Positions 10,982 to 43,283 are shown, numbered from the stretch's first letter. The stretch: DNA of 64,000 nucleotides from Sulfuritalea sp. (GCA_022842325.1 JALHPU010000001.1:144934-208933); one strand, 5' to 3'. Made by a program: numbers and translations. Notes: generated by a model from the sequence alone, not told the origin.

Positions 10982-10991
10982 CGGGGTGCCC

Positions 10992-13240: not shown

Positions 13241-13480
13241 TCAATCGGCCTCTCCTTGTGCCTCGGCGCCGCCCGGCTGCGTCGCGGCCCAATCGCTCAG
13301 CACCTTGCCCCAGCGGGCCGCCGTGGCCGGATCGATGTCGAAAATGGTGAAGCGGCTGCGTTCGCGAATCCGCGTGCGCAGCAATGGCATGCCGCCGGCC
13401 TCGAAGATGAACTGCTGCAGTTCGATCTCCTGGTTGCCGATGGGCACGCGAAACTTGTCGAGCGAGGTGACGGTATCCAA
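13241..13480 (-). CDS. Hypothetical 79-aa protein, first gene of the divergent operon
   Basis: AGAGGA RBS; ORF ends 29 nt before the Cas6e-like start. Confidence 0.4.
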   Translation of the reverse strand: MDTVTSLDKFRVPIGNQEIELQQFIFEAGGMPLLRTRIRERSRFTIFDIDPATAARWGKVLSDWAATQPGGAEAQGEAD

Positions 13481-13568
13481 AACTATTCCTCTATGTGGGG
13501 GCGGACTATGGCATCAGCGACGGGCATCAGCCATCACCGCGTGGGAGTGCAAGCATATAACCCTTTGG

Positions 13569-13588
13569 GGTAGGTCCATTTACCTACC
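13569..13588. promoter_or_regulatory. Perfect inverted repeat GGTAGGTccatttACCTACC in the divergent dsrA / upstream-operon promoter region (candidate operator)
   Basis: 7-bp arms with a 6-bp spacer, about 80 bp upstream of the dsrA start. Confidence 0.25.
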
Positions 13589-13666
13589 GGGAGTATGGTT
13601 TGTGCACCGCACACATCTCTATGATCGCTCCATCGAGTTTCACCCCCGACCACGAGGAGATAAACC

Positions 13667-14962
13667 ATGGCCAAGCCCATGCACCCAACACCGAACCTGG
13701 ATCAACTGGAAAGCGGCCCCTGGCCGAGTTTCGTCACCGGCCTCAAGCGCCTGGCCAAGGACAAGGACTATGTGGTCGACATTCTCGGCCACCTCGAGCA
13801 TTCCTACCAGACCCGCAAGGGCTACTGGAAGGGCGGCACGGTGGGTGTGCGCGGCTACGGCGGCGGCATCATCCCGCGTTTCACCGAGATCAAGGATGAG
13901 GCCGGCAACCCGGTTTTCAAGGACGCTGCCGAATTCCACACCCTGCGCGTCATGCCGCCCCCCGGCATGCACTACAACACCGCGACGCTGCGCCAGTTCT
14001 GCGACATCTGGGAAAAGCACGGCTCCGGCCTGATCGCCTTCCACGGCCAGTCGGGCGACATCATGTTCCAGGGCGCCACCACGGAAAACGTGCAGAAGGC
14101 CTTTGACGAAATCAACGACATGGGCTTCGACCTCGGCGGCGCCGGCCCGGCCGTGCGCACCTCGATGTCCTGCGTCGGCGCCTCGCGCTGCGAGCAGTCC
14201 TGCTACGACGAAGCCAAGGCACACCGCGAAGTGCTCAACACCTTCCTCGACGACATCCACCGTCCGGCCCTGCCCTACAAGTTCAAGTTCAAGTTCTCCG
14301 GCTGCCCCAACGACTGCATGAACTCCATCCAGCGTTCGGACATGGCCGTGATCGGCACCTGGCGCGACAACATCCGCACCGACGAAGCGCTGGCGAAGAA
14401 GTGGTTCGCCAAGCACGGCATGAACGAACTGGTGAACGACGTCGTCGCCCGCTGCCCGACCAAGGCCATCCAGATCAAGGAAATCAAGGATGTACGCAAG
14501 GCTGACAACTTCAGCAGCGTCGCCGTCAATGACACCCAGGCACTGGAAATCGACAACAAGGACTGCGTGCGCTGCATGCACTGCATCAACGTCATGACCG
14601 GCGCCCTGGCGACCGGCACCGACAAGGGTGCGACGATCCTGATGGGCGGCAAGCGCACCCTGAAGATCGGCGACCTGATGGGCACCGTGGTGGTTCCCTT
14701 CATGCCCCTGAAGACCGATGAGGACTACGAGAAGCTGGTCGAACTGGGCCAGAAGACCATCGACTTCTTCGCCGAGAACGCACTGGAGCACGAGCGCACC
14801 GGCGAAATGATCGAACGCATCGGCCTGGTCAACTTCCTCGAAGGCATCGAGGTTGATATCGACGCCAACATGGTCTCGACGCCACGCATGAATCCCTACG
14901 TCAATACCATTGGCTGGGACGACGAAGTCGCCAAGATCAACGCCAAAAAAGCTGCCGCCTGA
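13667..14962 (+). CDS. dsrA: Dissimilatory sulfite reductase alpha subunit DsrA (siroheme and [4Fe-4S])
   Basis: Siroheme-binding Cys motifs (CVGASRCEQSC, CPNDC), ferredoxin insert (CVRCMHC); GAGGAG RBS. Confidence 0.95.
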   Translation: MAKPMHPTPNLDQLESGPWPSFVTGLKRLAKDKDYVVDILGHLEHSYQTRKGYWKGGTVGVRGYGGGIIPRFTEIKDEAGNPVFKDAAEFHTLRVMPPPGMHYNTATLRQFCDIWEKHGSGLIAFHGQSGDIMFQGATTENVQKAFDEINDMGFDLGGAGPAVRTSMSCVGASRCEQSCYDEAKAHREVLNTFLDDIHRPALPYKFKFKFSGCPNDCMNSIQRSDMAVIGTWRDNIRTDEALAKKWFAKHGMNELVNDVVARCPTKAIQIKEIKDVRKADNFSSVAVNDTQALEIDNKDCVRCMHCINVMTGALATGTDKGATILMGGKRTLKIGDLMGTVVVPFMPLKTDEDYEKLVELGQKTIDFFAENALEHERTGEMIERIGLVNFLEGIEVDIDANMVSTPRMNPYVNTIGWDDEVAKINAKKAAA

Positions 14963-26126: not shown

Positions 26127-26894
26127 ATGAAACCAATTCCTGCTCAACCCGGCTGGGTCTACCTGGTCGGCGCCGGTCCCGGCGACCCCGAATTGTTGAC
26201 CATGAAAGCCGCGCGCCTGATCGGCGAGGCCGATGTCCTGGTCTATGACAATCTCGTCTCCAAGGCCGTGCTCGGCCTGGCCCGCCCCGACGCCGAGTGC
26301 ATCTACGCCGGCAAGGAACGTGGCAACCACTCGATACCGCAGGAACAGATCAATCAGCTGCTGGTGCGTCTGGCCAAGACCGGCAAGCGCGTGGTGCGGC
26401 TCAAGGGCGGCGACCCCTACATCTTCGGTCGCGGCGGCGAGGAAGTCGAAACCCTCCACGCCGATGGCGTCAATTTCGAAGTCGTGCCCGGCATCACCGC
26501 GGCGGCCGGCGTCGGCTCCTATGCCGGCATTCCGCTGACCCATCGCAATCACGCCCAGGCCTGCGTCTTCGTCACCGGCCACCTCAAGGACGGCAGCATG
26601 AACCTCGACTGGCCCGGTCTTGCCCGGCGGCGCCAGACGGTGGTGATCTACATGGGCCTGTCGGGCCTGTCCTACCTGTGCGAAAAACTCATGGAGCACG
26701 GCCTGCCGCCCGACTGGCCGGCCGCCATCGTGCAGCACGGCACGCAACCCACCCAACGTACCGTCACCGGCACCCTGACCACCCTGCCTGAACTGGCCAA
26801 GGCCGCCAACCTGCGCGCACCGACCCTGATCATCGTCGGCGAAGTGGTCACCCTGCGCGACAAGCTGCGCTGGTTCGCCGAAGCCAGCGACTGA
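26127..26894 (+). CDS. cobA: Uroporphyrinogen-III C-methyltransferase (SUMT; CobA / CysG C-domain)
   Basis: [29 protein letters not shown] motifs. Confidence 0.85.
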
Positions 26895-27130
26895 AGCACG
26901 GCACCGCCATCACGGCGGAATGCCGGGAGTCGGCGCCGACACTACGGCGCCGAACGCGCCCCACCGCAATGTTGTTTGCGCCAGCCTTTGGCACGCAAGG
27001 TGGGGGCGCACTTTCGGCCACAAGCGGTCCCTCGTCACGCGCTCGAAATTTGTCCCGCACTGCGCCAGGGAACGGCGGCTTTACGGCGATGAAACTGGAA
27101 CCCGGTCTGGCTTGACCCGGCCACAACCAG

Positions 27131-27235
27131 CCGGTCAAGGTAATCATCCAATTTCTACAAGCGAGGCCCCATCTGCCGCCGCTGAATGTCCGGATTACGG
27201 CGAGCAAATTGACGTCGACACTGCTTCGACTCGGC
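27131..27235. repeat. Copy 1 of an about 105-bp direct repeat (other copy 31070-31175)
   Basis: CCGGTCAAGGTAATCATC...TGAATGTCCGGATTACGGCGAGCAAATTGAC...GACTCGGC, roughly 80% identical to copy 2. Confidence 0.6.
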
Positions 27236-27464
27236 AGAAGCGGCCAACGCTGTTAAACACAATTGAAGCGATCAAATGCCCGGTCTACTGGCGGTACGAG
27301 GCGTCAATCTTCGTGTCGCAATGACACTTCCGTGCCAGGTAGATGGATAGTGCGGACCTGACCGAGAGCGGTAGCGCAGATAGGCTACCATTGGCTAAAA
27401 AGCATTCCCGTCGTTACCACCATGCAATACCGCCTACATTCCCAAAGCCCAAGAGCCTTCTGAC

Positions 27465-29195
27465 GTGGATCAAGTCAATACCCTGCTGCTGCTTTCGGGC
27501 GTCCTGCTGTTTCTCGGCGTGCTGGCCAGTACGCTGTCAGCGCGCCTCGGCCTTCCCTTCCTGCTGATCTTTCTTGTCGTCGGCATGCTGGCCGGCGAAG
27601 ATGGTCCAGGGGGCATCCGCTTCGACGATTTCGGGGTCTCGTTTTTTGTCGGCAATCTGGCGCTGGCGATCATCCTGCTCGATGGCGGCCTGCGCACGCG
27701 TATCTCTACCTTTCGCGTCGCGCTCTGGCCGGCGACGGCACTCGCCACCTGGGGCGTGATCGCCACCGCCGCACTGCTGGGGGCCTTCTGCACCTGGCTG
27801 CTCGGCGTGGACTGGCGCTATGGACTACTGATGGGGTCCATCGTCGGGTCGACCGATTCCGCCGCCGTCTTCAACCTTTTGCGCCACAGCGGCGTACGCC
27901 TTAACGAGCGGGTCGGCGCTACGCTGGAAATCGAATCCGGTGCCAATGATCCGATGGCCATCTTGCTGGTTACGGTGCTGGTGGGCATCATCGCCGGCAC
28001 CGGCGTGACCACGCCGGAGGGTGTGCTTCTGCAACTGATAACGCAGTTCGTGATCGGCGCCGCGCTCGGCATCGGCGCTGGGCGCTTGCTCGCCGAGTTG
28101 CTGCGGCGCGTGCGCCTGGCCGAGGGGCTTTCCGCCTTGTTAATCGTCTCGGGCGGGCTGACGGTATTCGCCGCCACCAACCAACTGGGCGGCAGCGGCT
28201 TCCTTGCCATTTATCTTGCCGGTGTGATCGTTGGCAACCGGCGCACGCGCGCCACCTCGCACGTGCTGAAGGTAATGGACGGCATGGCCTGGCTGGCGCA
28301 GGCCGGCATGTTCCTGCTGCTCGGCCTGCTGGTGACGCCTTCCCACCTGGTCAATTATTTCTGGGAGTCGCTCGCCGTCGCGCTGTTTCTGACCTTCGTC
28401 GCGCGGCCGCTGGTGGTTGCCGTGACACTGAAGCCTTTCCACTTTCCCAATCGAGAAATCGCCTATATCTCCTGGGTCGGCCTGCGTGGCGCGGTGCCCA
28501 TCGTGCTGGCCGTGTTTCCAGTCATGGCGGGCATTCCGGAGTCGCGCCTGCTGTTCGACGTCACCTTTGCCGTGGTGCTGTTTTCGCTGCTGGTGCAAGG
28601 CGCTACAGTGCCGTGGGCCGCGCGCCGACTTGACGTGGAAGTTCCACATAGCGCCGAACCGCTCGAATCGAAGGAAGTATGGATCGGACGGGAAACCGTG
28701 CTGGCGCTGGTCGCCTTCCGTGTCGAGACGCAGTCGCTGGCCATCGGCATGTTGCCAAGCTCGCTCACAGATCTGCGCGGTCGGCCCATGCGGTGTGCGG
28801 CCCTTGTGCGTCAGGGGCGTCCCCTGCTCGCGCCCAGTGCGACGGCGCTCAAGGTCGACGATGTTGTCTGGCTGCTGGCTTCGCCCGAACAGGTTGACAA
28901 CCTCACCGCGCTATTTAGTCGCCAAGAACAAAGCGGCCACCTCGCGGTGCGCAACTTCTTCGGCGAATTCGTGCTCGACGCCGACTCATCGGCGGCCGCA
29001 CTTGCTGCGACCTATGGCTTGGAACTCGACGCTGCCGAATCTGAGGGCAGCATTGGCGAACTGTTGGCGAAACGACTGGGGCGTCGCCCGGTGGTTGGTG
29101 ACCGCGTCGGGATTGGGAGCATGGAACTCACGGTGCGTGCGGTAAGCGGCAACCGTGTTGCCTCCGTAGGTCTCAAGATGTCGAAGAGTCACTAA
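27465..29195 (+). CDS. nhaP2: K+/H+ antiporter NhaP2/CvrA family (CPA1) with C-terminal TrkA-C domain
   Basis: 12 TM helices, conserved IESGANDPMAI motif, C-terminal RCK_C domain; GTG start. Confidence 0.8.
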   Translation: MDQVNTLLLLSGVLLFLGVLASTLSARLGLPFLLIFLVVGMLAGEDGPGGIRFDDFGVSFFVGNLALAIILLDGGLRTRISTFRVALWPATALATWGVIATAALLGAFCTWLLGVDWRYGLLMGSIVGSTDSAAVFNLLRHSGVRLNERVGATLEIESGANDPMAILLVTVLVGIIAGTGVTTPEGVLLQLITQFVIGAALGIGAGRLLAELLRRVRLAEGLSALLIVSGGLTVFAATNQLGGSGFLAIYLAGVIVGNRRTRATSHVLKVMDGMAWLAQAGMFLLLGLLVTPSHLVNYFWESLAVALFLTFVARPLVVAVTLKPFHFPNREIAYISWVGLRGAVPIVLAVFPVMAGIPESRLLFDVTFAVVLFSLLVQGATVPWAARRLDVEVPHSAEPLESKEVWIGRETVLALVAFRVETQSLAIGMLPSSLTDLRGRPMRCAALVRQGRPLLAPSATALKVDDVVWLLASPEQVDNLTALFSRQEQSGHLAVRNFFGEFVLDADSSAAALAATYGLELDAAESEGSIGELLAKRLGRRPVVGDRVGIGSMELTVRAVSGNRVASVGLKMSKSH

Positions 29196-29409
29196 ATTGT
29201 TGGGTTGCATTGATCGAGATTGCGAAACCCTTGCACGTCCCTTCACCATAGCGATGGCGGTATGACTGTCTGTGCATCGAGCAAAAACAACCGACCGCTT
29301 CCAGGAAGTGAAATCGCACAGGCCGCTTTTCGGCAATGAATTGTGGAAGGCGACGGTCGCATCGGTGCCCTTAGCAGACGTAGGCGATTTGAGAAAGCGG
29401 ACGCTCAGG

Positions 29410-29494
29410 AACGTAGAGGTGACCGGCGCAGCGCGGCTTTATCGCGCAGCGCCCAGCGACCGAAGGGGGCGAGGTTGAGCGTAGGGGGTTAGAC
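29410..29494. repeat. attC-like palindromic repeat, copy A; the i1 stop codon lies inside its GTTAGAC end
   Basis: AACGTAGAGGTGACC...GCGCAGCGCGGCTTTATCGCGCAGCGC...GGGGGTTAGAC. Confidence 0.55.
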
Positions 29495-29839
29495 ATCGGT
29501 AAATGCAAAGCACCGGTCAAAATTCATTTTGGCTAGCACTACCCTGGCTTCCTTCATTTCACCCTTGTTCACAGAGCCGACATCGAGAACGTAGCGCCGT
29601 ACGGTTGTTTGAATTTGAACTTCGATGCCACTCCAGCGCACAGAGAGAAGCATCTCCGGTTCGGAAAAGCTCGAAGCCTCAGTTCTAACGGAAACACCCC
29701 GTTCTTCCTCAGGAATCAGAGACTCATACTTCGGAGTGCGAAGCAACGTAAGACTTGTACTCGAATGCTCTCCAAGACCGAACGAAACGACCAGATCGTC
29801 TGCGTCGTCAATGGTGATGAAAGGAACGTAGGTACTCAT
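29489..29839 (-). CDS. Hypothetical 116-aa protein (island ORF i1)
   Basis: ATG sits 3 nt beyond the GTTTAAC end of repeat B; low-GC codon usage. Confidence 0.5.
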   Translation of the reverse strand: MSTYVPFITIDDADDLVVSFGLGEHSSTSLTLLRTPKYESLIPEEERGVSVRTEASSFSEPEMLLSVRWSGIEVQIQTTVRRYVLDVGSVNKGEMKEARVVLAKMNFDRCFAFTDV

Positions 29840-29842
29840 GAT

Positions 29843-29908
29843 GTTTAACGTGGAGATAAGCCACCTGCGCGGCCTTTCGCGCAGGTCGCCTCGAACGCAG
29901 GGTTAGAT
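29843..29908. repeat. attC-like palindromic repeat, copy B
   Basis: GTTTAACGTGGAGATAAGCC...CTGCGCGGCCTTTCGCGCAG...GGGTTAGAT. Confidence 0.55.
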
Positions 29909-29926
29909 TCCGGCGCTGCCATGGCC

Positions 29927-30811
29927 TTAATGACGGATCGTTTCATCTTGCGGAACAATACTTCCGACGTACTCGCCTTGCCGCCAGTAGCCCTCGTGGA
30001 CAACTTGTGAATCAGCGTCGAAATAGGTGCCCGGGCCGTCAAAAGAACCTCTCGAGAAGTTGCCTTTATACCAATCTCCGTTCACGTAACTCAACCGCCC
30101 TTGTCCAGAAAACTCCCCTCTACTGAAATCACCGACATATAGCTCGCCATTGGCACGCTTCAATTGGCCATGCCCGTGAAAGAAGCCGTACTCAAAAGTA
30201 CCCTCGTAGATGTCTCCGAGGGCGTTGATATGGCGTCCTTGCCCATGCCAAAGCCCCCCTTTGAATTCGCCGTCGTAGCGATCGGCGTTTGGAAATAATG
30301 CAGTCGCGACTCCCTGACAAACGCCTGAGTCAAAGTTTCCAGAAAGAACCGTCCCGTCTCTGTAAGTCCATGTTCCGCGGCCATGAACTGCTCCACGGAA
30401 GAAATCGCCCTCGTACCTATCTCCCGCCGCAGTAACCACGACGCCCTTTCCATCACAGTAGTCGTTCTTGAACTCCCCTTCATAGACTTGGCCAGTTTCC
30501 GACCATATTTTCCCCGCGCCATGGTATTGGCCGTTCCGAAAATCGCCTTCGTAATGGCTGCCAGAAGCGAAGGTATACGAGCCCTTTCCGGTTCTTGCGC
30601 CGTTCGTCATTGCGCCAAGATATACATCCCCAGAAGCAAATGTGGTCTTCCCTGATCCATGCATCAGTCCATTTAGGAATGTACCCTCATACACCGTACC
30701 GTCAGGCCATCGGAGAACACCACGGCCGTTAAATAGGCCGTTGGCAACTTCGCCCACGTATATCGAGCCATCCGGCAAAAGTGCTTCCTGTTCGGGTTGT
30801 GAGAAAGTCAT
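29927..30811 (-). CDS. MORN-repeat protein (about 12 repeats, cytoplasmic)
   Basis: Reiterated YxGxxxxGxxHGxG units (YEGEFKNDYCDGKGV, YEGDFRNGQYHGAGK and others). Confidence 0.8.
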   Translation of the reverse strand: MTFSQPEQEALLPDGSIYVGEVANGLFNGRGVLRWPDGTVYEGTFLNGLMHGSGKTTFASGDVYLGAMTNGARTGKGSYTFASGSHYEGDFRNGQYHGAGKIWSETGQVYEGEFKNDYCDGKGVVVTAAGDRYEGDFFRGAVHGRGTWTYRDGTVLSGNFDSGVCQGVATALFPNADRYDGEFKGGLWHGQGRHINALGDIYEGTFEYGFFHGHGQLKRANGELYVGDFSRGEFSGQGRLSYVNGDWYKGNFSRGSFDGPGTYFDADSQVVHEGYWRQGEYVGSIVPQDETIRH

Positions 30812-30836
30812 CGTATGGCGGAACAGAGGAATCTAA

Positions 30837-30910
30837 ACGTGGAGATGGCCGGCGCTGCGCGGCCTCATCGCGCATTTCTTCTTCGGGTGAGAGGCAGCGC
30901 ATTTTTAACC
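30837..30910. repeat. attC-like palindromic repeat, copy C (immediately upstream of the MORN gene start)
   Basis: AACGTGGAGATGGCCGGCGCTGCGCGGCCTCATCGCGCA... Confidence 0.5.
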
Positions 30911-31069
30911 CCTTCTCCGAAGATCGTTACATTATTTTCAGTCACATGGTATTTTTACGGTCAGTATGACAACTCCTATATGCCTGACACCTGTGGATAG
31001 TTTTCCGAATGCGGGAGTACGGGGACGAGTGTCCGCGCAGGGGTAGCAATCATTTAGGTCCGCCTTTGG

Positions 31070-31175
31070 CCGGTCAAAGTAGTCATCAAGTTCCCCCAGG
31101 CGAAGCACCCGCCGCCCGTGTTGAATGTCCAGATTTACGGCGAGCAAATTGACACCTGCACTGCCCCGACTCGGC
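31070..31175. repeat. Copy 2 of the about 105-bp direct repeat (see 27131-27235)
   Basis: CCGGTCAAAGTAGTCATC...TGAATGTCCAGATTTACGGCGAGCAAATTGAC...GACTCGGC. Confidence 0.6.
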
Positions 31176-31306
31176 CATCAAAAGACATTTCCCCAAAGAT
31201 CTGAATTAGCGCTTCAGGCGCAACGACCATTCGGATAAGCCTAAAACGGTGGATAAAGCGACCGCCACGATCCATGCGGCGACATTCGAGGTATCGGTGA
31301 GCGTGC

Positions 31307-32695
31307 TCATTTTCCGCTGCCGGCTACCGCAGTTATTTTGTTCAGCAAACTCTTGCCCTCATCGGTCTGAGCCAAGGCCGTCAGCATGCCAGAAATGTTG
31401 GTTCCACCCTGAGGCGTGAACATGTCACCAAGCTTGACGACGCCCCCTTGGATGTCACCGGCATTGGCGATGACTTTCAATTCGGCGCTTTGCATGGCTT
31501 TCGCCATCTCGATACCCACATCCTTGCCAGCCTTGACCTGTTCGATAGTCACCAAATACTTCTGGTAGCCCTCGTTGCTGCCGATTTCCTTGGCCAGCGT
31601 GATCTGCGTTTCAACAGGCGCCAACAGCATCGCCTTCTCGGCAGCCGCGTGGGCTTCACCCTTGGCCTTGATGCCTTCCGCTTCTTTTAGTGACGCCGCC
31701 AGATCACCTTCCGCTTTGACAGTCATTGACCGGCTGTCCGCCTCGGCCCCGACAACCAGCGCCTGCCGGTCGGCTTCGGCATTCACGATCTTGACCTGCT
31801 TGTTTTGCTCCGCCAACACTATGGCGACTTCTTTGCCAATCTCGGCTGCCCGCACCTTTTCAACTTGACTGACCGACATGTTGCGTTCGGCGGTGGTTTT
31901 GGCTTCCACCTGAATCTGTTGGCGCGACTGCTCGTTGGCAATGCCAACTACCTGGTCCTTCTGCGCCGTCCTTAGCCCCACCTGTTGCTCGGCGTCTTGG
32001 CGTTGTACTTCAACCGTACGCTTGGCATCGATCTCTGCCATCTCGGCTGCCTGATGATTGCTAGCGACGGCGATCCGACTTTCCTTCTCGATACGGGACT
32101 TCTCTTTCTCCATGATATTGGCGATCACTTGCCCTTTGCTCGAATCACGGATATCCATGAACTCAATGGTCTTGACTGGAAGCACTCCCCACTCCGCGAT
32201 CTGGTTCTTTACTTCCATCGTGAATTGGTTACCAAGGTCGGAACGCGACTGAAGAATGATCTCAAGAGGATTGGTCGCAAGGATGCGGCGAACAGCGCCC
32301 TGTAGCACTGATGTCAGTTGGCTCTGAAGTTCGCCAAACGATGCCACACGCTGTGCCGCGGTCTCCGCCAACTCAACACGAAAGAATGCCGAGACATCGA
32401 CCGTGAAAGGCAGCCGTGCCTGATCGTAGGCTTCGTACGCATCGAGGTTGATCTGAAATATAGACTCCGGGAACTCGATGATCGACACGCCAAGACTGGG
32501 CACGCGCGTCGGCCAGGCGTAGTAAGAATTGCCGGAAGCTTTGCCGCGCCCGTAGGGTGTGGTACTGGACGACGACTGGACAATGTGCACCATGTTGGTA
32601 GGCACCACCCGACGCAACATCATGGCAACGAGGAAACCCGCAAATGCCAGTGCGAGGACTAGTAAAAGCAACAACGGAACAAGAAATTCAAACAT
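31307..32695 (-). CDS. Flotillin-like SPFH/band-7 domain protein (YqiK/FloT-like)
   Basis: N-terminal TM, SPFH domain, long Ala/Glu/Gln-rich coiled-coil flotillin region. Confidence 0.8.
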   Translation of the reverse strand: MFEFLVPLLLLLVLALAFAGFLVAMMLRRVVPTNMVHIVQSSSSTTPYGRGKASGNSYYAWPTRVPSLGVSIIEFPESIFQINLDAYEAYDQARLPFTVDVSAFFRVELAETAAQRVASFGELQSQLTSVLQGAVRRILATNPLEIILQSRSDLGNQFTMEVKNQIAEWGVLPVKTIEFMDIRDSSKGQVIANIMEKEKSRIEKESRIAVASNHQAAEMAEIDAKRTVEVQRQDAEQQVGLRTAQKDQVVGIANEQSRQQIQVEAKTTAERNMSVSQVEKVRAAEIGKEVAIVLAEQNKQVKIVNAEADRQALVVGAEADSRSMTVKAEGDLAASLKEAEGIKAKGEAHAAAEKAMLLAPVETQITLAKEIGSNEGYQKYLVTIEQVKAGKDVGIEMAKAMQSAELKVIANAGDIQGGVVKLGDMFTPQGGTNISGMLTALAQTDEGKSLLNKITAVAGSGK

Positions 32696-33205
32696 AGGAT
32701 CGGCCTTACGAAAGTAAATGGAATGAGGAATACGTCAGAAGACTTCGTGCCCAATGGGCGGGAATTGTTCTGGACATTCAGTCCCAAAGTCCAATGGCGA
32801 AAACAAACCTCTAAAGGATAGAAAATACAGTGGGCATTCAGGAAGTATGGCTGATGCCGTATGCCGCAGTCAATCGTCGATTCCACACGGAGAAGCATCT
32901 GAATCCGCCGAAATGCCTTCCGCAGTGGCCCGCGCGCTGGGGCAATGCGCGGTGATGGAACGGCAGCAATGAGTCAAGCACTTCGGCAATTAGACGTTTA
33001 TCTTCCATGCTATCTGGGAAGTGCTTTGCCGCGACTGAAATGGGCGTCGGGGGGGGCTGTGGTTGGTGTGGCCGGCGCGGACAAAAAGGCAGCCCCGCAC
33101 TTAGCGCAATCTGACGCACCCAATGAGACCATTAAGTGGCAGTTCGGACAGATCATGAGGCTCAACGTGCTAGCGCAGAGGTGCGAAGCCGGCTTCCGCT
33201 TGCAC

Positions 33206-34060
33206 CTAGTTAACTCGTATCTCTTCTATGAGGAAACCAAAGAGAGAACTTCTCCCTGCAACTGTGATCGAGTCGCCGATTTTTGGAGTACGGCCAATGA
33301 CTCGCCCTTCAATACAAATTTTTACATCAATTCCTTCAATACTAATTTTCGCCGTTTGGTCGCATTTCATGCTTCTGCGTGGTTCGCGCATCACCTCCAC
33401 TGACACTACTTTCGCTGCTTTAGGCGCTGAACGAGTTCCGATTGCCCAACCTGCCAATGCCGACCATCCCAACGGCGAGAAGATCACCATAGCTGACGAC
33501 ATAACGACAACCAGCGGAAACATAAGCAGCCATCGCACCAGCCAAGTAGGGTATCGGTAAGCCAGGGTGCGTTGTTTCCGTTCAAGTCGAAACCACATGA
33601 TCGCGAATGCCGGCAATAGAACAGCAAACAGATATGGCAATGCGACGCGGTATTGGTTGGTGTACGAAAAGACAAAATTTTCCCCAACGGTGAACTCAAG
33701 AGGAACGCTTAGGAAGGCGAACAACGCAAGCACTAATGCTGTTTTCTGCCACACACCAGGACGCGGAGTCGTTGGATGCTGCGTTTTGATTTCAGCAATA
33801 CTATCGGCTACCTCCTTGTCCAAACGGTCCGAGATCGACTGTAACCGGGCCTCTATGCGCTTTGTGGCGTCCGCGTCGAGTTTTCCTTGGCGCTCAAGTT
33901 CCGATCCTTCTCGAAAGACAGCCTCCATTTCGGCAGATGCACGCTTAAAGGCTGCATTTGCGTTCCCATCCAAGTCATTAAGTGGTTTGTCCGGCAGACG
34001 AGCCTGGCAATCTTGGACTGGGACTTGGTTACTCATTTTGGAGACGCCAAACGTAAACAT
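33206..34060 (-). CDS. Hypothetical membrane protein (island ORF i4); coiled-coil N-terminus, about 4 TM helices, C-terminal beta-rich domain
   Basis: ORF with TM segments; alternative start at MSNQ (34036). Confidence 0.45.
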   Translation of the reverse strand: MFTFGVSKMSNQVPVQDCQARLPDKPLNDLDGNANAAFKRASAEMEAVFREGSELERQGKLDADATKRIEARLQSISDRLDKEVADSIAEIKTQHPTTPRPGVWQKTALVLALFAFLSVPLEFTVGENFVFSYTNQYRVALPYLFAVLLPAFAIMWFRLERKQRTLAYRYPTWLVRWLLMFPLVVVMSSAMVIFSPLGWSALAGWAIGTRSAPKAAKVVSVEVMREPRRSMKCDQTAKISIEGIDVKICIEGRVIGRTPKIGDSITVAGRSSLFGFLIEEIRVN

Positions 34061-34108
34061 GATCTGCGCTTCGCGGCATCGTCGCGTAGCATCCGGGGGA
34101 ATGATTCG

Positions 34109-34534
34109 TTATGCCTTTGTAGCGACAAGATAGACCCAGCCACCAGCAGGCTCACGCTTTACAGTGGCCTGCGAACGAGGAAGGCACCGCGGCTGAAGTT
34201 TCGAGAAGTCACCCTTGTTTCTTGGGTGCTCCGTATATGCAACGACTTGTTGTTTCTGAACGAAGACAAGCACGTTAATTCCATCGCTTCCAGCAATTGA
34301 TGTTTTTGATTCTGCGTCCCACCTGAAGCCCAGAACCTGTTCGGCAGTTTGGTTGGTTGTGTACGGCGACAACACACAAACACGCTCCCACGACGCTGGC
34401 CCGACGAGTGACAAATCAATCGGGGCAGTCTTGCTGGCCTCAAATTGCATTGCGATCTGCTTACTTATGGGCGAGCTACCACTGGAACACCCTAATAACA
34501 AAATCAGTGGCAAGACGAGCGAAGTTAGTCTCAT
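34109..34534 (-). CDS. Lipoprotein (island ORF i5, 141 aa)
   Basis: Signal peptide with LLGC lipobox. Confidence 0.5.
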   Translation of the reverse strand: MRLTSLVLPLILLLGCSSGSSPISKQIAMQFEASKTAPIDLSLVGPASWERVCVLSPYTTNQTAEQVLGFRWDAESKTSIAGSDGINVLVFVQKQQVVAYTEHPRNKGDFSKLQPRCLPRSQATVKREPAGGWVYLVATKA

Positions 34535-34613
34535 AGGGCAGAATTAATTCACAGGCCAGCGAGGATTTTTAGCGCTGGTCCGGTGGAATGATGGGCTACG
34601 CCGAAACCTGGTA

Positions 34614-35519
34614 TCAGTTCTTAGTCGTCCTATGCCTCTCGAAGTAGCTAATAAGACCTTCCAGTTCTTGATCAGATAATGCCCGAGGAGTGCTATAGCC
34701 AAGTGTCGGGAACGGGCCTAGGTAGACGAATACTGCTTCAAATGACCATGACTGGCGATGTCTTTTACAGGTGAATGAACACGTACTCCATCTATCACCA
34801 ATCCTTCCCATATGTGCATATAGGCGGGCGCAGAAGTAGTGAAGTGCCAAGGAAGGCTCGATTCGTTCCGCGGAACCACCGTCACCGTTAATTTGGCATC
34901 GAATTGAAATCCCATCGCAGTCGACAACTAGTTCGGCGCCACGCCAAGATTGTGGGAGCGCAGCAACTAATTCACAGATCAACGGCTGGATAGTTGTTTC
35001 GTAGTCAGAAGCTCGACTAACAATACGATGATCTGAACTCTTATTGCGCCATATTGGAAGAGGATTGATAGTTCTCGGCTGGCTGCGCTCCTTTAGCGCT
35101 TCAACGAGGGAAACAGCCTGCCACTCACGGCGCGAAAACAGATTTCGAACACTCCTACGTTTTACCAATACAAACACCCCAGACATGAAAACTACCAAGC
35201 CAATCAGGACCACCAACATCGAAATTGAAGAAATTCGAGCCGCTGACTGCACGCTTACGATAGAAATGGCAATAGCCACCATGCCAAGGCCAGCCACTAC
35301 GGCAGTTCTGCCCCCACGTTGTAAGCCTGAAGCCTTCCTGCGGTCATAACTTTCAATGGCAGAATCAAGGCGATCAGAAGTCGCCATGCTTCTTATCATT
35401 TCGTCAACCGCAGCTAACATTTCTTGCTTTTCAGGGTTATCCGGAAGTGCGTGGAGTTCTTTACGGAAAGATTCGGTCTCCACGAGCATGTGTTCGCTTT
35501 GAAAGGGTTTAGTGTTCAT
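34614..35519 (-). CDS. Hypothetical membrane protein with Cys-rich C-terminal domain (island ORF i6, about 301 aa)
   Basis: Start at MNTKPFQ (ATG 35519), immediately 3' of repeat D; the longer ORF 34614..35630 reads into the repeat. Confidence 0.45.
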   Translation of the reverse strand: MNTKPFQSEHMLVETESFRKELHALPDNPEKQEMLAAVDEMIRSMATSDRLDSAIESYDRRKASGLQRGGRTAVVAGLGMVAIAISIVSVQSAARISSISMLVVLIGLVVFMSGVFVLVKRRSVRNLFSRREWQAVSLVEALKERSQPRTINPLPIWRNKSSDHRIVSRASDYETTIQPLICELVAALPQSWRGAELVVDCDGISIRCQINGDGGSAERIEPSLALHYFCARLYAHMGRIGDRWSTCSFTCKRHRQSWSFEAVFVYLGPFPTLGYSTPRALSDQELEGLISYFERHRTTKN

Positions 35520-35528
35520 TGGGAGATG

Positions 35529-35644
35529 ACTGTGGAGATATACCAAAGGCAACACAGGGCTTACCGTGAGGCGACCGGCGCTGCGCGGCTTCATCGCGCA
35601 GCGTCCAGAGATCGAAGCGAACGGGACCAACCGCAGGGTTAGCC
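35529..35644. repeat. attC-like palindromic repeat, copy D; the i7 stop codon lies inside its GTTAGCC end
   Basis: ACTGTGGAGATATACC...GCTGCGCGGCTTCATCGCGCAGC...CAGGGTTAGCC. Confidence 0.55.
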
Positions 35645-36088
35645 ATCGGATTTGACGGAGACATATTCAACCTTGACGTCTCGACGGAGAGGCTCGGCTT
35701 TGAAAAGGCGGACGAGCGGATGATGCTCAATACGCAAGTGATGGTCAGAAACCCAACTTACGGCGATAGCTGGCCCACCACTTGGACCAGCGGGGGCTTT
35801 GCCGTGATCGCGGTCTGCGACGAAGATGTTTCCTCCTTCATTAGGGAGCGAGTCAGTACCCCTGAGAATGGAAACCTGAGTTGAAAAATCCGTGGTGGCG
35901 CCACAGTCGCGACTGAAAACAACAGCATTGATTTGGCCACCGGGAGCGCCAGACTCAGCAAGGATGGAATTTCCGCAGAGATCCGGAACGAGAAGCGAGA
36001 ATGCGGTGACGGCCAAAGCAACAAGGCCAGCGACAACACCCGCGATAACGCCACGTACCTTCAACCAATAAAAGAGCCGCGGGTTCAT
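35639..36088 (-). CDS. Hypothetical membrane-anchored protein (island ORF i7, 149 aa)
   Basis: N-terminal TM helix; ORF bounded by repeats D and E. Confidence 0.45.
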   Translation of the reverse strand: MNPRLFYWLKVRGVIAGVVAGLVALAVTAFSLLVPDLCGNSILAESGAPGGQINAVVFSRDCGATTDFSTQVSILRGTDSLPNEGGNIFVADRDHGKAPAGPSGGPAIAVSWVSDHHLRIEHHPLVRLFKAEPLRRDVKVEYVSVKSDG

Positions 36089-36241
36089 GTCAGATGGCTA
36101 ACGAAGCTGTAGAAAAAGTCTTTTCATAGTCGCATCGTGCCGCGAACCAAATGGAATATCAATACTCGAAGCATGAGTTATTGCGCAGATGTAATCATGG
36201 CCCGCTACAAACACATCAATAACGTAGAGCTGACGATGCCG

Positions 36242-36763
36242 TCAACGTGAAGTGGACCGGTTCTGCGCGGCTTCATCACGCGACACCTGGTGGCTTGATA
36301 GCGCAGAGGGGAATTGAGTTCCGTCATGCCACAGGCGTCGCGCAACATAGAGAAATGCCAAGCCTAATGGTAAGAAGGCAATCAGCAAGCCGCGACTTGC
36401 GGCAACGTAAGCTGAAATTGAATCAACTGGTAATGACTGACCCATTTCTTTCTGATTGAATCGAATTTCAATCGTACTTCCTAAATAGATGTCTGGCCGT
36501 ATCGGTGCCTGGGCGGTACCGAGATTCAAATTGCCCTTTGAGTCGGTGTAGTTGTACCGGATAAGTGAGTAGCGAGTATCACGGACAAAACAATAGAACG
36601 AAGGCAATCTAACGTCGGTCCGTTCAGTGACTCGGCCATATGCTGTTTCCCAGTTGTATGCATCGGAACTTTGCCGATAATCAGACACGGCTCCGGGTAC
36701 CGATACGAATAAACCCAAAGCCATCAAGGCAGCGAGTATCGCAACTACGCGTTCAGCGTTCAT
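36242..36763 (-). CDS. Hypothetical protein with N- and C-terminal TM helices (island ORF i8); the true 3' end may lie upstream of repeat E
   Basis: ORF with TM segments; C-terminal codons run through the repeat. Confidence 0.4.
   Translation of the reverse strand: MNAERVVAILAALMALGLFVSVPGAVSDYRQSSDAYNWETAYGRVTERTDVRLPSFYCFVRDTRYSLIRYNYTDSKGNLNLGTAQAPIRPDIYLGSTIEIRFNQKEMGQSLPVDSISAYVAASRGLLIAFLPLGLAFLYVARRLWHDGTQFPSALSSHQVSRDEAAQNRSTSR
36244..36310. repeat. attC-like repeat, copy E (degenerate; overlaps the 3' end of ORF i8)
   Basis: AACGTGAAGTGGACC...CTGCGCGGCTTCATCACGCGAC...AGCGCAGAGGGG. Confidence 0.4.
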
Positions 36764-37158
36764 AGCTCTAGCTTCCTTTTTTATGTCACGCCAATTCTTA
36801 TTTTGAACAACGCCGTTTTGATCGACATTGTGCCGACAAATCGAGGAGACAACAATGCCTCTGACATGCTGAATGGCAGGTTACTGCCATATATATGAAG
36901 GACCGCTCCTGGCCGGTAGGTTGAGGTCGACAATGGCCGGTTCGGAGCATCCAAGTCGCAAAGTCAGGATTTGGCTGACTGGCCGGTATGGAGAAATGCG
37001 ACTGGCCGGAATGGGCACATAGCGCCAGTCCGCGATACTGGATGCAACCACGATGGAGTTCCGAGGAACGGACCCTGACCAACTACCAAAGCGTCGCGCC
37101 GCCACTGCGTTGACGTGCCGAAAGTCGGCGCTGACAACACGGCACCAGTCGTGCGTCG

Positions 37159-39744
37159 CTAGGCCTTCCTGACCCGCATCGCCTCGGCCATCGAAATGTT
37201 CGGCCGATGGATGTAGAAGCCCTGCGCCAGATCGATGCCCTGCACGATCACCTGATCGAGCACCTCCTGGTCCTCGACATATTCGGCCACGGTGCGGATG
37301 CCGAGATCCTTGCTCAGCGTGACGATGCTGCGCACCAGCGCGCGGTCCTTCTCGCTGTGCTTCATGCCGAGGATGAAGTCGCCTTCGATCTTGAGGAAAT
37401 CGATCGGGAAGCGCTTGACGTAATGGAAGGACGAAAAGCCGGAACCGAAATCGTCGATCGCCAGCTTGAAGCCTTCGTTGCGCAGTGTGCCTATGAAGCG
37501 TTCCAGCAGCGCCATGTTCTTGATCGTCTCGCGTTCGGTGATCTCGAACACCAGCCGGGTCGGATCGATCTTGAACTGGCTGGCGATGCGCCGCGTCTGC
37601 TGGACGAAATCGTTGAGCACCAGCGCGCGCGGCGACATGTTGATGAACAGGTAGCCACCGTAGCCGGTCTGCTCCACCGCTTCCAGGGTCTTTTCCAGCT
37701 GGATGAAATCCAGCTTGTGCATGACGCCCATCTTTTCGGCGATGGCCACGTACTCGTCGGCGATGACATAACTGCCATCCTCCATGCGGATGCGCGAGAG
37801 GATCTCGATCGCCTCGACCTGGCCGCTGAGCACATTGACGATGGGCTGGAAGAAAGGCACCACGCTGCGCTTTTCGACCGCATTCAGGATCAGCATGCTC
37901 TTCTCGCCGAGGGTGCGGAAGACGTCGATCACGTCCTGCGCATCGGGTACCACCACACGATTCTTGCCCTCGGCCTTGGCCCGGTACATCATGTTGTCGG
38001 CGAACAGGAACAGGTCCTTCATGGCCTGCGCATGATCGGGATAGGTGGCCATGCCGATCGACACCGAGCCGCACATCACCGCACCGTCGGGCGCGGTCAT
38101 GCTCACCGCGGCGACCGATTCGATGATGCGCCGCGCCACCGCCTCGCCGGCTTTCAGATCGGTTTCCGGCAGGATCGCAACGAACTCGTCGCCGCCGTAG
38201 CGCGACAGCAGGTCGTCGTCGCGGATCGCCGCCTTGATGCCGCCGACCACCAGTTGCAACATCGAATCGCCGATGCCATGGCCGTAGGAATCGTTGATCG
38301 ACTTGAAGTTGTCGGCGTCGATCACCAGCAGGGTGAACTTGTTGCCATGGCGCGAGGAACGCAACACTTCGTTCTCGATCAGTTCCCAGAATACGCGCTG
38401 GTTGTAGAGGTTGGTCAGCGGGTCGCGCGTCGCGTAGTACTCGAGGTCCTTGGTGTATTTGTCGATCGCCTTGACCGAGCCGACCACGTTGAGCAGCGTG
38501 GTGAGGATGCTTTCCACCACCAGCAGGCGCATCGGGTCGGTCTCGAACTGCGGCTGCATGCCGATGCCGACGATGCCGCCGATCTTGGGCGCATCGACCA
38601 TCAGCGACTTGATCTGCACGTCGATGTCCTCCTCGCGCAATTCCGCGATGTTGCCGGCCATGTCGGCGATGTTGTGGCGGATGCGGATCGCCAGGCCGGC
38701 CTCGAAATGCTCGGCGCGCTGGAGGATGTGCTGCAGGCAGTTCTCGAATACCTGCCTGGTGGCTTCGGACGGCCGGGCGCGCCAGAAGATCTCCAGGTCG
38801 TAGGCCTCGTCGCTGATCTTGAACACCGAGAACATCACATAGGCCGGCACCACGCTGTCGATGTCGAGGATCAGGCGGCTGACGTAGGCCCGCCAGTCCT
38901 TGATCACCTCCGTGGTGAGGATGAATTTCTCGAGCAGCCGGATCTCGAATTCGAGCATGTCCTTGTCGACGGCAATGGTCCGTATGCGCTCGGTGAGTTG
39001 CCTCACTTCACTGGCCACGGCATCGAACTCGGCAAAGCCCAGGTCGGGCTGCCGGGCTTCCAGCGCGCGCAGGTCCGAGATGCGGTTCACCGCACGGATG
39101 CTCTTCGCCAGCGACTCGATCGGGCCTTCCAGGCGGCGACGGATGTAGAGCACCATCAGGAAAGTCACGATCAGCATCACCGGAATGATCGGGGCGAAGG
39201 CATAGCTGAAACGCGCGCGGTGCGATTCGATTGCGGCGCCGACGTTCTGCTGCACGTCGATCACACCCAGCACGTCGCCGACCGCGGCATTGACATGGCA
39301 CTTGAGGCAGACCTCCTGCGCGCGCAGGGGATACACCACGCGGATCAAGTCACCGGTTTCGAGATGCTGGCGATTGCCTTCCCTCAGCGCGCGCAGGATC
39401 TCGGCATCCGGGGTTTTCTGCGCGATCTCGCCGAACAGCGCGCTGACCTTGGGCCCACGATAGATGTCGATCTGGCGCTGGGTGTTATCGACGGATTTCT
39501 GGATGGCCCGCAGGTAGCCTTCGAGCTGCTGACGATTCCATCCGGTGCTCATCAGCTCGAACATGGCGTTGAAGGTCAGCTCGGCAAACACCGAGGCGTC
39601 CTCGACCGCATCGTCGCGTACCGAACGGTCGTAGATTCCCGAAACCACGAAAAGTGTCGTGGCAAATATCGCAATCGAGAAAACCGCGCCGGCAGCGAGC
39701 AGTAGTCCCTTGATGCTGCGGACAAGATTCATGTTTTGTTTCAA
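37159..39744 (-). CDS. Membrane-anchored sensor diguanylate cyclase/phosphodiesterase (periplasmic/HAMP-like N-terminus, GGDEF and EAL domains)
   Basis: GGDEF (RYGGDEF) and EAL (EAL...DDFGSG) motifs; 861 aa. Confidence 0.85.
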   Translation of the reverse strand: MKQNMNLVRSIKGLLLAAGAVFSIAIFATTLFVVSGIYDRSVRDDAVEDASVFAELTFNAMFELMSTGWNRQQLEGYLRAIQKSVDNTQRQIDIYRGPKVSALFGEIAQKTPDAEILRALREGNRQHLETGDLIRVVYPLRAQEVCLKCHVNAAVGDVLGVIDVQQNVGAAIESHRARFSYAFAPIIPVMLIVTFLMVLYIRRRLEGPIESLAKSIRAVNRISDLRALEARQPDLGFAEFDAVASEVRQLTERIRTIAVDKDMLEFEIRLLEKFILTTEVIKDWRAYVSRLILDIDSVVPAYVMFSVFKISDEAYDLEIFWRARPSEATRQVFENCLQHILQRAEHFEAGLAIRIRHNIADMAGNIAELREEDIDVQIKSLMVDAPKIGGIVGIGMQPQFETDPMRLLVVESILTTLLNVVGSVKAIDKYTKDLEYYATRDPLTNLYNQRVFWELIENEVLRSSRHGNKFTLLVIDADNFKSINDSYGHGIGDSMLQLVVGGIKAAIRDDDLLSRYGGDEFVAILPETDLKAGEAVARRIIESVAAVSMTAPDGAVMCGSVSIGMATYPDHAQAMKDLFLFADNMMYRAKAEGKNRVVVPDAQDVIDVFRTLGEKSMLILNAVEKRSVVPFFQPIVNVLSGQVEAIEILSRIRMEDGSYVIADEYVAIAEKMGVMHKLDFIQLEKTLEAVEQTGYGGYLFINMSPRALVLNDFVQQTRRIASQFKIDPTRLVFEITERETIKNMALLERFIGTLRNEGFKLAIDDFGSGFSSFHYVKRFPIDFLKIEGDFILGMKHSEKDRALVRSIVTLSKDLGIRTVAEYVEDQEVLDQVIVQGIDLAQGFYIHRPNISMAEAMRVRKA

Positions 39745-42640: not shown

Positions 42641-43283
42641 TTTGCGTCGCCTCCGTCAGTTTGGCTTGCTGCTTGCGCAACTTCCTGCGCTCGATCCAGG
42701 CGAACAGCAGCAGCCAGGCACCGAGCACGAAGAAGCCGCCCGGCGGCAGCACCATGATGACCCAGGGCTGGAAACCGGCACCGAACAGCCCGATGCCGAA
42801 CAAGGTACCGGCGCCGAGGATTTCGCGCACCACGCCCAGCGCCAGCAGGCCGATGACGAAGCCGATGCTCATGCCCAGCGCATTGATCATCGCCGGCAAC
42901 GGCGGATTCTTCGAGGCGTGGGCCTCGGCCCGGCCGAGGATGATGCAGTTCACCACGATCAGCTGGATGAAGGCGCCCAACGCATCGTAGAGCGTCAGGC
43001 TGATCGCCTGGATCGCGTAGTCGACCACGGTGACGAAGGTGGCAATGATCACGATGTAGACGGCGATGCGCACTTCCTTGGGCGTGAACTTGCGCATCAG
43101 CGACACCAGGCCGCAGGAGCAGACCAGCACGAACAGCGTCGCCAACCCCATCGACAGCGCATTCACGGCCGAGACCGTCACCGCCAGCGTCGGGCACATG
43201 CCGAGCACCATGACGAACACCGGGTTCTGGCGCCAGACGCCCTCCATGAATTCGTCCCAGGTCGCGACGGTGGACGGATTCAT
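42633..43283 (-). CDS. rnfE: Rnf complex subunit E
   Basis: RnfE/NqrD family; start at MNPSTVATW (ATG 43283) inside ORF 42633..43586. Confidence 0.9.
   Translation of the reverse strand: MNPSTVATWDEFMEGVWRQNPVFVMVLGMCPTLAVTVSAVNALSMGLATLFVLVCSCGLVSLMRKFTPKEVRIAVYIVIIATFVTVVDYAIQAISLTLYDALGAFIQLIVVNCIILGRAEAHASKNPPLPAMINALGMSIGFVIGLLALGVVREILGAGTLFGIGLFGAGFQPWVIMVLPPGGFFVLGAWLLLFAWIERRKLRKQQAKLTEATQNA

Follow-up and report, generated by a model that had tools for sequence, protein, structure and literature searches.

Clusters of attC sites lacking integrases (CALINs) are defined by at least two attC sites without a nearby intI gene (Cury et al. 2016, PMC4889954). The 2016 survey counted 279 of them, most without intI pseudogenes and many co-occurring with integrons in the same genome; about half were found in replicons that encode the integron integrase IntI, and rearrangement was listed as one of their origins (PMC4889954). 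A 2021 survey of RefSeq counted 2961, and insertion by IntI outside att sites, which has been shown experimentally, was put forward as one way in which small CALINs and single attC sites lacking integrases (SALINs) arise (bioRxiv 10.1101/2022.09.11.507474).

An array of this kind was examined in a 64,000-nt stretch of DNA from Sulfuritalea sp. (GCA_022842325.1, JALHPU010000001.1:144934-208933), referred to here as the window. It lies in a low-GC island between the genes nhaP2 and GGDEF-EAL, and consists of open reading frames (ORFs) on the minus strand separated by imperfect palindromic repeats. Because at least two attC sites are present and neither intI nor an intI remnant was found in the window, the array was assigned to the CALINs. 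The block is, with high confidence, what remains of an integron cassette array of betaproteobacterial (Rhodocyclales-type) origin, without an integrase in the 64-kb window. The first-pass annotation, made from the sequence alone, had already proposed an integrase-less cassette array, and this proposal was upheld by matches to attC models, by the hallmarks of the cassettes and by the absence of IntI from the window; such an array can be recognised from raw sequence without tools.

The likeness to known CALINs is close. The window array contains two or more co-oriented attC sites with cassette ORFs and no nearby intI, its cassettes are without known function and include no resistance gene, and an insertion sequence (IS) is associated with it, all of which is found in the described clusters (PMC4889954). 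In 95% of these no intI pseudogene is recognisable, as in the window (PMC4889954). There is no categorical difference: the window array shares a 10-kb strain-specific insertion with nhaP2 and is described at a finer level, down to the defects of each site, the stump of an attC, what is left of an IS and a gene within the array that is not a cassette. The locus fits the known class and adds nothing categorical to it. It also raises no new question, as CALINs number thousands and their origins by integrase loss, rearrangement or secondary-site insertion are already in the literature. Possible points of wider note are the apparent targeting of attC by an IS1182-family element and a possible movement of the segment linked to nhaP2.

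Among complete integrons, those at the external loci L030 (Sulfuritalea), L062, L079 (Sulfuricella) and L141 resemble the window array in their attC family, with both of its size classes, and in cassette size and spacing. The o149 gene family is common to the window array and to chromosomal integrons of Rhodocyclales, Nitrosomonadales and Burkholderiales. Those integrons have a divergent upstream intI (TIGR02249) and better-conserved attC sites, scoring up to 91 bits, whereas the window array is without intI and without a recognisable attI.

Boundary repeats and their attC family

A 39-nt repeat unit was found in five copies at the 3' ends of ORFs, in agreement with the placement of the repeats at ORF boundaries in the first-pass annotation. 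Its 23-nt core, GCGCGATRARGCCGCGCWGCGCC, has four matches with three or fewer mismatches in the 64 kb, all of them inside the island, where 0.01 would be expected. On the minus strand the repeats read RYYYAAC, spacer, imperfect palindrome, spacer and GTT. A scan of other genomes, using one genome per species, located the core in at least 119 loci. Among the matches listed, the core loci were nearly all betaproteobacterial, mostly from Rhodocyclales, Nitrosomonadales and Burkholderiales, with Sulfuritalea, Thiobacillus, Thauera, Aromatoleum, Accumulibacter, Nitrosomonas, Zoogloea and others among the genera, giving a widespread attC family that links integrons across these three orders.

The external loci were searched by tblastn using an IntI1 sequence that was validated by the matches it returned. 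Full-length IntI proteins with 52–60% identity to IntI1 were identified in 13 of the listed 8-kb core loci, and frameshifted or partial copies in several further core loci. Three of the 13 were classified as NCBIfam TIGR02249 'integron integrase', scoring 463–497 bits where 265 is the cut-off. In the 13 intI loci the arrays were always divergent from intI and a few kb away, in the canonical layout.

The external sites form a long class of ~87 nt and a short class of ~70 nt that share a GCGCGATRAAGCCGCGCAGCGCC stem, with R'' of GCCTAAC or GCCCAAC and R' of GTTAGGC or GTTGGGC in both classes. An alignment of 66 external sites gave RYYYAAC ... GTTRRRY cores common to all, the AAC and GTT being invariant. 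The R box, L box and central stem were 91.5% paired in this alignment, compared to 28–40% when the 3' partners were slid by 1–3 columns, and three L-box pairs showed 16, 27 and 32 double (compensatory) changes among the 66 sites. The L'' of the external sites always carries one extra base, which would be an extrahelical base of the folded strand.

A covariance model, R1, was built from the 66 external sites only and the whole window was searched with filters off. For a broader model, R2, 59 array sites were taken from complete integrons and cassette arrays, and many of these sites lack the exact core; no intI was seen in the sequence analysed from two of its training loci (L142, L144). R1 gave seven matches in the window, each of them within the island and on the minus strand, with scores of 60–18.5 bits and E from 1.8e-16 to 7e-3 (E at most 0.007). 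R2 gave five solid matches that were kept, at the o149, MORN, o116, o141 and o338 cassettes. Matches to an attC model, whose absence the first-pass annotation had named as a ground for refutation, were thus obtained with training sites from other genomes, many of them beside confirmed integron integrases. On the 13 intI loci R1 gave 52 matches of 19–91 bits; taking each site on its better strand, all of these were on the strand opposite to intI and upstream of it, and a few strong sites had a weak reverse-strand score as well. The best R1 match outside the island (42954-43017, minus strand, 18.0 bits, E 0.01–0.03 with both models) lies inside a coding region and has no AAC/GTT cores, and is probably a chance match. 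These comparisons show the window repeats to belong to an attC family that adjoins confirmed intI genes elsewhere.

The alternative that the repeats are palindromes of the repetitive extragenic palindrome (REP) or bacterial interspersed mosaic element (BIME) kind, or terminators of an ordinary membrane-protein operon, would account for imperfect palindromes at gene ends and for the detection of 30856-30874 by a terminator-like scan. It is exceedingly improbable, as the repeat family flanks confirmed IntI genes in 13 loci and was confined to the island in the sequences searched: no match rose above background in the 56 kb of flanking window, and R1 gave zero matches in ~100 kb from relatives that lack the array. 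A REP-type family, which the first-pass annotation had held out as a way in which its proposal could fail, was thus not seen in these sequences. The o149 protein and the flotillin have homologues in unrelated contexts, so that the genes do not form a conserved operon; the first-pass annotation had noted that the encoded set is not a described operon. The cassette-specific complementarity of R'' and R' also argues against this alternative.

IntI cuts between the G and the TT of GTT. A cassette therefore begins with bases that come from its own attC, and its 5' end is complementary to its own R''. The o149 cassette starts at G|TTAGCCATC (36102-36093), and its 5' end GTTAGCCATC is the reverse complement of its R'' GATGGCTAAC at 10/10 positions, extending to 18 nt at 83%. 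The 5' end of the o116 cassette, GTTAAACATC, which starts at G|TTAAACATC (29849), is complementary to its R'' GATGTCTAAC at 9/10 positions, and that of the MORN cassette, GTTTAGATTCC, starting at G|TTTAGATTCC (30836), to its R'' GGAATCTAAC at 10/10 with one inserted T. The complementarity was weak for o141 and o338 (6/9) and absent for o284. As the variable positions differ from cassette to cassette, it is not a by-product of the similarity of the repeats. The o149, MORN and o116 cassettes retain cassette-specific R''/R' complementarity across their boundaries.

The o149 protein has ~200 homologues with a scattered distribution (Accumulibacter, Curvibacter, Methylophilaceae, Methylobacter and others). 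One with 62% identity is the fifth cassette of the complete integron L141, which has a divergent gene for a 321-aa protein with SAM_4 and Phage_integrase domains and eight model matches on the cassette strand, one of them directly 3' of the o149 homologue. Other homologues lie within arrays of small co-oriented ORFs with attC matches (L142-L145).

Condition of the array and absence of an integrase

The features of the locus are collected in Table 1. The GC content is 0.527 in 29196-37158 compared to 0.648 in both 1-29195 and 37159-64000, and the GC profile steps down at ~29.2 kb and up at ~37.0 kb. The drop estimated by eye was therefore borne out by measurement (52.7% against 64.8% in both flanks), and a uniform composition does not apply. 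GC at third codon positions is 0.48–0.66 in the eight island ORFs compared to 0.77 in nhaP2 and 0.86 in the GGDEF-EAL gene. Pfam identified Na_H_Exchanger, TrkA_C and CorC in 27465-29195 and GGDEF and EAL in 37159-39744. An ORF scan and Pfam confirmed the eight co-oriented minus-strand ORFs, including the MORN protein and the flotillin. For six of the eight, searches of Pfam, NCBIfam and PADLOC gave no family; functional matches of the island proteins in these databases were limited to MORN, SPFH and a zinc ribbon, and no known defence system in PADLOC was matched by the cassette proteins. By reading of the sequences, the set comprises one lipoprotein, four membrane proteins, the MORN protein, the flotillin and a soluble 116-aa protein. 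An Rfam scan of the island gave chance-level matches only, to a small nucleolar RNA model and a long non-coding RNA model. Look-ups of the NhaP2, flotillin and MORN proteins of the window returned no identical protein record.

Table 1. Features of the cassette array and its surroundings. Positions are those of the window unless a locus is named; TM, transmembrane.
Feature	Position	Strand	Description
Low-GC island	29196-37158	-	eight ORFs, 116-462 aa
Strain-specific 10.1-kb insertion	26957-37088		nhaP2 module and cassette array
Insertion border, cobA	26127-26894	+	NCBIfam
Insertion border, GGDEF-EAL gene	37159-39744	-
nhaP2 module	27117-29375	+	gene 27465-29195 with ~350 nt upstream and 180 nt downstream; in the insertion, outside the array
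Leader 5' of first cassette ORF	36764-37088	-	325 nt, inside the insertion; four ACCGGCCA repeats
Cassette ORF o173	36242-36763	-	173 aa, N- and C-terminal hydrophobic segments, no family
Degenerate attC, overlapping o173 3' end	36240-36303	-	R' GTT at 36246-36244
attC stump	36221-36234	-	14 nt; L', spacer and R', GTCAGCTCTACGTT; read from the sequence
IS1182-family IS remnant	36103-36220	+	terminal repeat GAAGCTGTAGAAAAAG and first ~8 transposase codons
Cassette ORF o149	35639-36088	-	149 aa, N-terminal TM segment
attC of o149 cassette, long class	35558-35644	-	87 nt
Cassette ORF o338	34614-35519	-	central TM segments, no family
attC of o338 cassette, short class	34536-34601	-	L box intact with extra C
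Cassette ORF o141	34109-34534	-	141 aa, lipoprotein-type signal peptide LLLGC
attC of o141 cassette, short class	34046-34114	-	R'' GCATAAC and R' GTT intact
Cassette ORF o284	33206-34036	-	four TM segments
Putative short attC of another type, o284 end	33160-33214	-	GTTAAC ... imperfect palindrome ... CACGTTGAGC; by eye
Composite segment in cassette position	30836-33163	-	2.3 kb, several ORFs, ~750 nt non-coding
Zinc-ribbon ORF	33010-33156	-	48 aa, CPNC...CAKC, Pfam Zn_Ribbon_1 E 5.6e-5; directly after o284 boundary repeat
Flotillin unit	31290-32897	-	ORF 31307-32695, SPFH/Band 7 (Pfam), with 200 nt upstream
Non-coding mosaic	within 30836-33163		~415 nt, with nhaP2-upstream duplicate and L016-like stretch
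Half attC of flotillin segment	30836-30874	-	core, L' and R' GTT; R'' and L'' missing
MORN cassette ORF	29927-30811	-	294 aa, seven MORN repeats, Pfam MORN 157.8 bits
attC of MORN cassette, short class	29843-29911	-	AAC and GTT intact, L'' extra C present
Cassette ORF o116	29489-29839	-	116 aa, no family
Last attC (o116 cassette), long class	29406-29494	-	hybrid L box
IS copy in L001	L001 713-2513		IS ends GAAGCTGTAGAAAAA

Of the eight or nine boundary repeats five are solid attC calls, and the full attC architecture is present in the MORN site only, with defects in those of o149, o338, o141 and o116. The MORN site scored 42.2 bits with R1 (E 1.4e-10, 29908-29843) and 47.6 bits with R2. The o149 site had the highest score (R1 60.3 bits, E 1.8e-16; R2 51.9 bits); it has an R' core of GGT for GTT (35565-35563) and three transitions in L''. 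The o116 site (R1 50.6 bits, E 2.5e-13, 29473-29406; R2 45.7 bits) is 84–93% identical to dozens of external sites; R1 skips its long-class insert, and the true R'' is at 29494. It is a hybrid, with an L'' of GCTCAACC type, an L' of GGTCACC type and a spacer 2 nt longer, and 2/7 L-box pairs are broken because L'' and L' come from different subtypes of the family. The o141 site (R1 31.7 bits, E 3.6e-7; R2 28.8 bits) has a mismatched L box and mismatches in part of the stem, and the o338 site (R1 23.8 bits, E 1.3e-4; R2 28.7 bits, E 3.8e-5) has AGC for AAC in R'' and a shortened R' region without GTT (ATTCTGCC). The o173 site matched the core at 20/23 positions and scored 22.3 bits with R1 (E 3.9e-4); the flotillin half site contains an exact core match and gave a local R1 match at 30874-30856 of 18.5 bits; the o284 boundary repeat has AAC/GTT cores and a hairpin at the ORF end. 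The stump matches the 3' end of the family, GGTCAGCTCTACGTT, in L112 and L045; its 5' part and its cassette are deleted.

Two ORF starts were revised. The TTG start of o338 lies inside the preceding attC and residues 2-23 match translated attC in 13 loci (tblastn), so the 338-aa reading of the first-pass annotation had a spurious start, its first 37 codons being translated attC; the true start is likely ATG 35519, giving 301 aa. The start of o284 is probably ATG 34036 (276 aa). The stretch 35520-35630 illustrates that gene callers are likely to mis-annotate starts of this type within attC.

The bottom strands of the sites were folded and gave minimum free energies of -21.9 (o149), -16.8 (o116), -14.8 (MORN), -10.1 (o338), -9.1 (o141) and -7.7 kcal/mol (o173), compared to -21.0 +/- 2.2 and -21.6 +/- 3.5 kcal/mol for the external long and short classes. 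Five window sites therefore lie at -7.7 to -16.8 kcal/mol where the external family ranges from -15.8 to -29.1 kcal/mol, with o116 below its family range in stability. The z-scores were -2.1 for o149, -2.45 for MORN and ~0 for o141 and o173. In this folding, which the first-pass annotation had suggested, o149 and MORN fold below shuffles, a hint at most of recombination by IntI as folded bottom strands, and o141 and o173 fold no better than shuffles; the extra L'' base is present in the family. The mutated GTT/AAC cores, mismatched L boxes, half attC, attC stump and IS remnant together point to an array in decay. IntI acting in trans could still use the sites with the least damage, which are that of MORN and perhaps those of o149 and o116. 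The locus is a well-dissected example of the erosion of an array once separated from its integrase: core triplets are mutated, L boxes are mismatched, sites are reduced to halves, an IS has been inserted and then mostly deleted, and a gene that is not a cassette has intruded.

A search by tblastn with IntI1 and four betaproteobacterial IntI detected no intI or intI fragment in the 64-kb window at E <0.05; the window extends 29 kb and 27 kb beyond the array on its two sides. The leader contains no IntI remnant. Compared to the attI regions of 14 complete integrons, which are barely conserved among themselves, it showed no similarity. Four ACCGGCCA(G/T) copies are spaced 23–70 nt apart in the leader (36905-37015, minus strand), an arrangement reminiscent of the integrase-binding direct repeats of attI. 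The arrangement of a complete integron, with intI, attI and the cassette promoter Pc adjoining the first cassette, was not found, and the array is bounded by the native GGDEF-EAL gene. Same-strand attC sites less than 4 kb apart are present in excess of two, with five solid sites (35644, 34601, 34114, 29908, 29494), two degenerate sites and one putative site. A further candidate at 37113-37133, just 3' of the GGDEF-EAL stop, was rejected as an attC remnant because it is also present in the relative L124, which is without the array; it is a native intergenic hairpin.

Several points weigh against the assignment as given. The R2 scores of the o173 site (18.4 bits, E 0.025) and of the flotillin half site (15.9 bits) are at background level, which for o173 must be judged against 42954-43017 because that match sets the background, and the o284 boundary repeat was detected by neither model. 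Both models are family-specific and were seeded with a window-derived motif, the training sequences being external. The fold comparison exaggerates the decay, because sites entered the external set by virtue of an exact, stable core. If only the five solid sites are counted, there is a gap of 4.1 kb (34046-29908), just above the 4-kb rule of IntegronFinder, which might split the array into 3 + 2. The direction of the event that placed the array here, insertion as opposed to deletion in the relatives, is read from three relatives, all of them metagenome contigs. An intI gene may also exist elsewhere in the genome, in which case 'remnant' overstates the isolation of the array.

This last point leads to a second reading, in which the array is a detached part of a living integron, parted by a rearrangement or by the 10-kb insertion event from an intI elsewhere in the genome, with the cassettes an active reservoir that is excised and re-inserted in trans. 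We consider this possible but rather doubtful. It agrees with the presence of complete integrons with the window attC family in the Sulfuritalea metagenome-assembled genomes (MAGs) L030 and L064, with the co-occurrence of CALINs and IntI and the origin by rearrangement reported by Cury et al. 2016 (PMC4889954), and with three window attC sites that look usable. Set against this, there is no intI within 27–29 kb on either side, and most sites are defective in the core triplets or the L box.

In the preferred reading, that of an array remnant, the units would once have been circular cassettes, each an ORF with its attC, inserted by the tyrosine recombinase IntI at G|TT through the folded bottom strand of attC. 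Successive insertions would have built a co-oriented array at the attI of an ancestral integron, which was presumably later split from intI and has since changed through mutation of the ordinary kind, through the activity of ISs and through recombination, whether illegitimate or homologous. The cassettes could be expressed only if transcription reads through from the GGDEF-EAL gene, which is co-oriented, or starts at promoters inside the array, such as one upstream of the flotillin. The native hairpin after the GGDEF-EAL stop has no T-run.

A strain-specific, probably inserted segment with nhaP2

In the relative L124, whose GGDEF-EAL protein has 92% amino acid identity, the sequence homologous to the window up to 26956, at the end of cobA, is joined directly to that homologous to the window from 37089 onwards, with an intergenic region of 68 bp; this is taken as the ancestral arrangement. 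The window therefore carries an extra segment of 10.1 kb. The relatives L125 and L131 have other DNA between cobA and the GGDEF-EAL gene, so that the block was absent from the locus in all three; a synteny comparison had been suggested with the first-pass annotation. The foreign block is real and also larger than the first-pass annotation had claimed, extending over 26957-37088 and including nhaP2. The DNA downstream of GGDEF-EAL differs in every relative compared (L125-L131, L135, L139), and the cobA/GGDEF-EAL intergenic region is for this reason regarded as a hotspot for strain-specific DNA. In L125 this stretch (9577-11008) has an HxxxD acyltransferase-like gene; in L131 it is 12563-13826.

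A direct repeat at the edges of the insertion (26884-26951 and 37079-37146) scored 51 compared to a maximum of 54 in 410 control windows, which is borderline, and both copies aligned better to the single intergenic hairpin region of L124 (scores 66 and 84). No tRNA gene, as a possible integration target, was found in the window.

The nhaP2 module is 92% identical in nucleotide sequence to L120-L123; only 27117-29375 is common to them and the flanks differ. The closest NhaP2 proteins (97–92% identity) are from Sulfuritalea and Rhodocyclales MAGs. The neighbours of nhaP2 in L120, L122 and L123 include transfer genes of integrative and conjugative elements (TraG, TraH, TraF), tyrosine recombinases and an IS91-type element, and the gene sits at a mobile-element junction in these close relatives. 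The array appears to have arrived, or to have been retained, within a larger mosaic in a recombination hotspot, and its arrival would have been as part of the 10.1-kb segment with nhaP2 and not by cassette-by-cassette insertion by IntI in situ. CALIN and nhaP2 may travel as the cargo of an integrative element, with the nhaP2 upstream region, duplicated at 31069-31175, as attachment site.

That the cassettes were instead added singly at this spot by IntI at a secondary (attG-type) site, the array never having moved as a whole, is improbable. Experimental insertion by IntI outside att sites (bioRxiv 10.1101/2022.09.11.507474) makes it conceivable, and the lack of an intI pseudogene beside the array is in its favour. 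However, the segment also contains nhaP2 with flanks of its own, an IS remnant and the non-cassette flotillin unit, the array is large and old enough for decay, a leader of 325 nt precedes the first cassette, and the outer junctions have no clean G|TT joint to native DNA.

IS remnant and flotillin segment

The IS remnant sits between the attC stump and the o149 cassette and abuts the GTT|AGCC boundary of the latter. It is 82% identical over 120 nt to an IS end in L001, where a 508-aa ORF was identified as an IS1182-family transposase (NCBIfam, 263 bits, E 5e-78). The same IS end abuts the GTT of an attC R', or AAC on the other side, always in one orientation, at 10 places in 8 other loci (L001, L018, L053, L073, L077, L078, L087, L101). 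In L078 and L101 a single cassette is flanked by two IS ends. The positions of these ends make the IS look like an attC-core-targeting element of the DDE type, which would have been inserted into the array and later mostly deleted. The conserved element at 36.1–36.2 kb had been considered as a group II intron or other RNA, and was rejected as such since it is the IS end identified by the L001 transposase.

The IS resembles the IS1111-attC elements and group IIC-attC introns (PMC3001079) in that its ends abut the R' GTT of attC in a fixed orientation and in many arrays. It differs from them in its transposase, which is of the IS1182-family DDE type, neither a DEDD enzyme of the IS1111 type nor a reverse transcriptase. 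We put forward only tentatively, and hold to be somewhat unlikely, that IS1182-family elements and their shorter derivatives target attC at G|TT in one orientation across betaproteobacterial integrons, cause deletions by which arrays lose cassettes and integrases, and form a third, DDE-type lineage of attC-targeting elements.

The description of the units as tightly abutting and each with a single ORF does not hold for the flotillin segment, which is 2.3 kb long with several ORFs and ~750 nt of non-coding DNA. The picture of tidy promoterless cassettes with one ORF each does not fit the array, in which not all units are of that kind and several sites are degenerate. The 48-aa zinc-ribbon ORF, the IS remnant (36220-36103) and the attC stump (36234-36221) had been overlooked in the first-pass annotation.

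The flotillin unit is 93% identical in nucleotide and 98% in amino acid sequence to a gene in the MAGs L146-L152 (e.g. GCA_947504545.1), which there has a DUF3592 gene on one side and radical-SAM genes on the other, with an IS nearby and no attC. It is low in GC in both hosts, and a sigma-70-like site lies upstream of its ORF at 32873-32844. This distribution points to a recently exchanged unit and not a classical cassette. At 31310-31206 a 34-aa ORF overlaps the end of the flotillin ORF; since homology with the flotillin unit of other genomes stops 17 nt past the flotillin stop codon, this ORF is unlikely to be a gene.

Just downstream of the flotillin gene, the left end of the conserved nhaP2 module, upstream of the gene (27130-27235), is found a second time inside the array (31069-31175) as a 107-nt direct repeat with 77% identity, both copies being on the plus strand. 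Its start, GCCGGTCAAGG, is the point of synteny break in all nhaP2 relatives, and the repeat may be the attachment site of an integrative element. The adjoining non-coding stretch 30935-31072 resembles L016 2130-2266 (73% identity), which in that locus separates the first cassette ORF from the gene for a chromosomal ATPase. An exact 18-mer, TTCGGCCACAAGCGGTCC, is also shared between 27013-27030 of the window, upstream of nhaP2, and L016 2252-2269.

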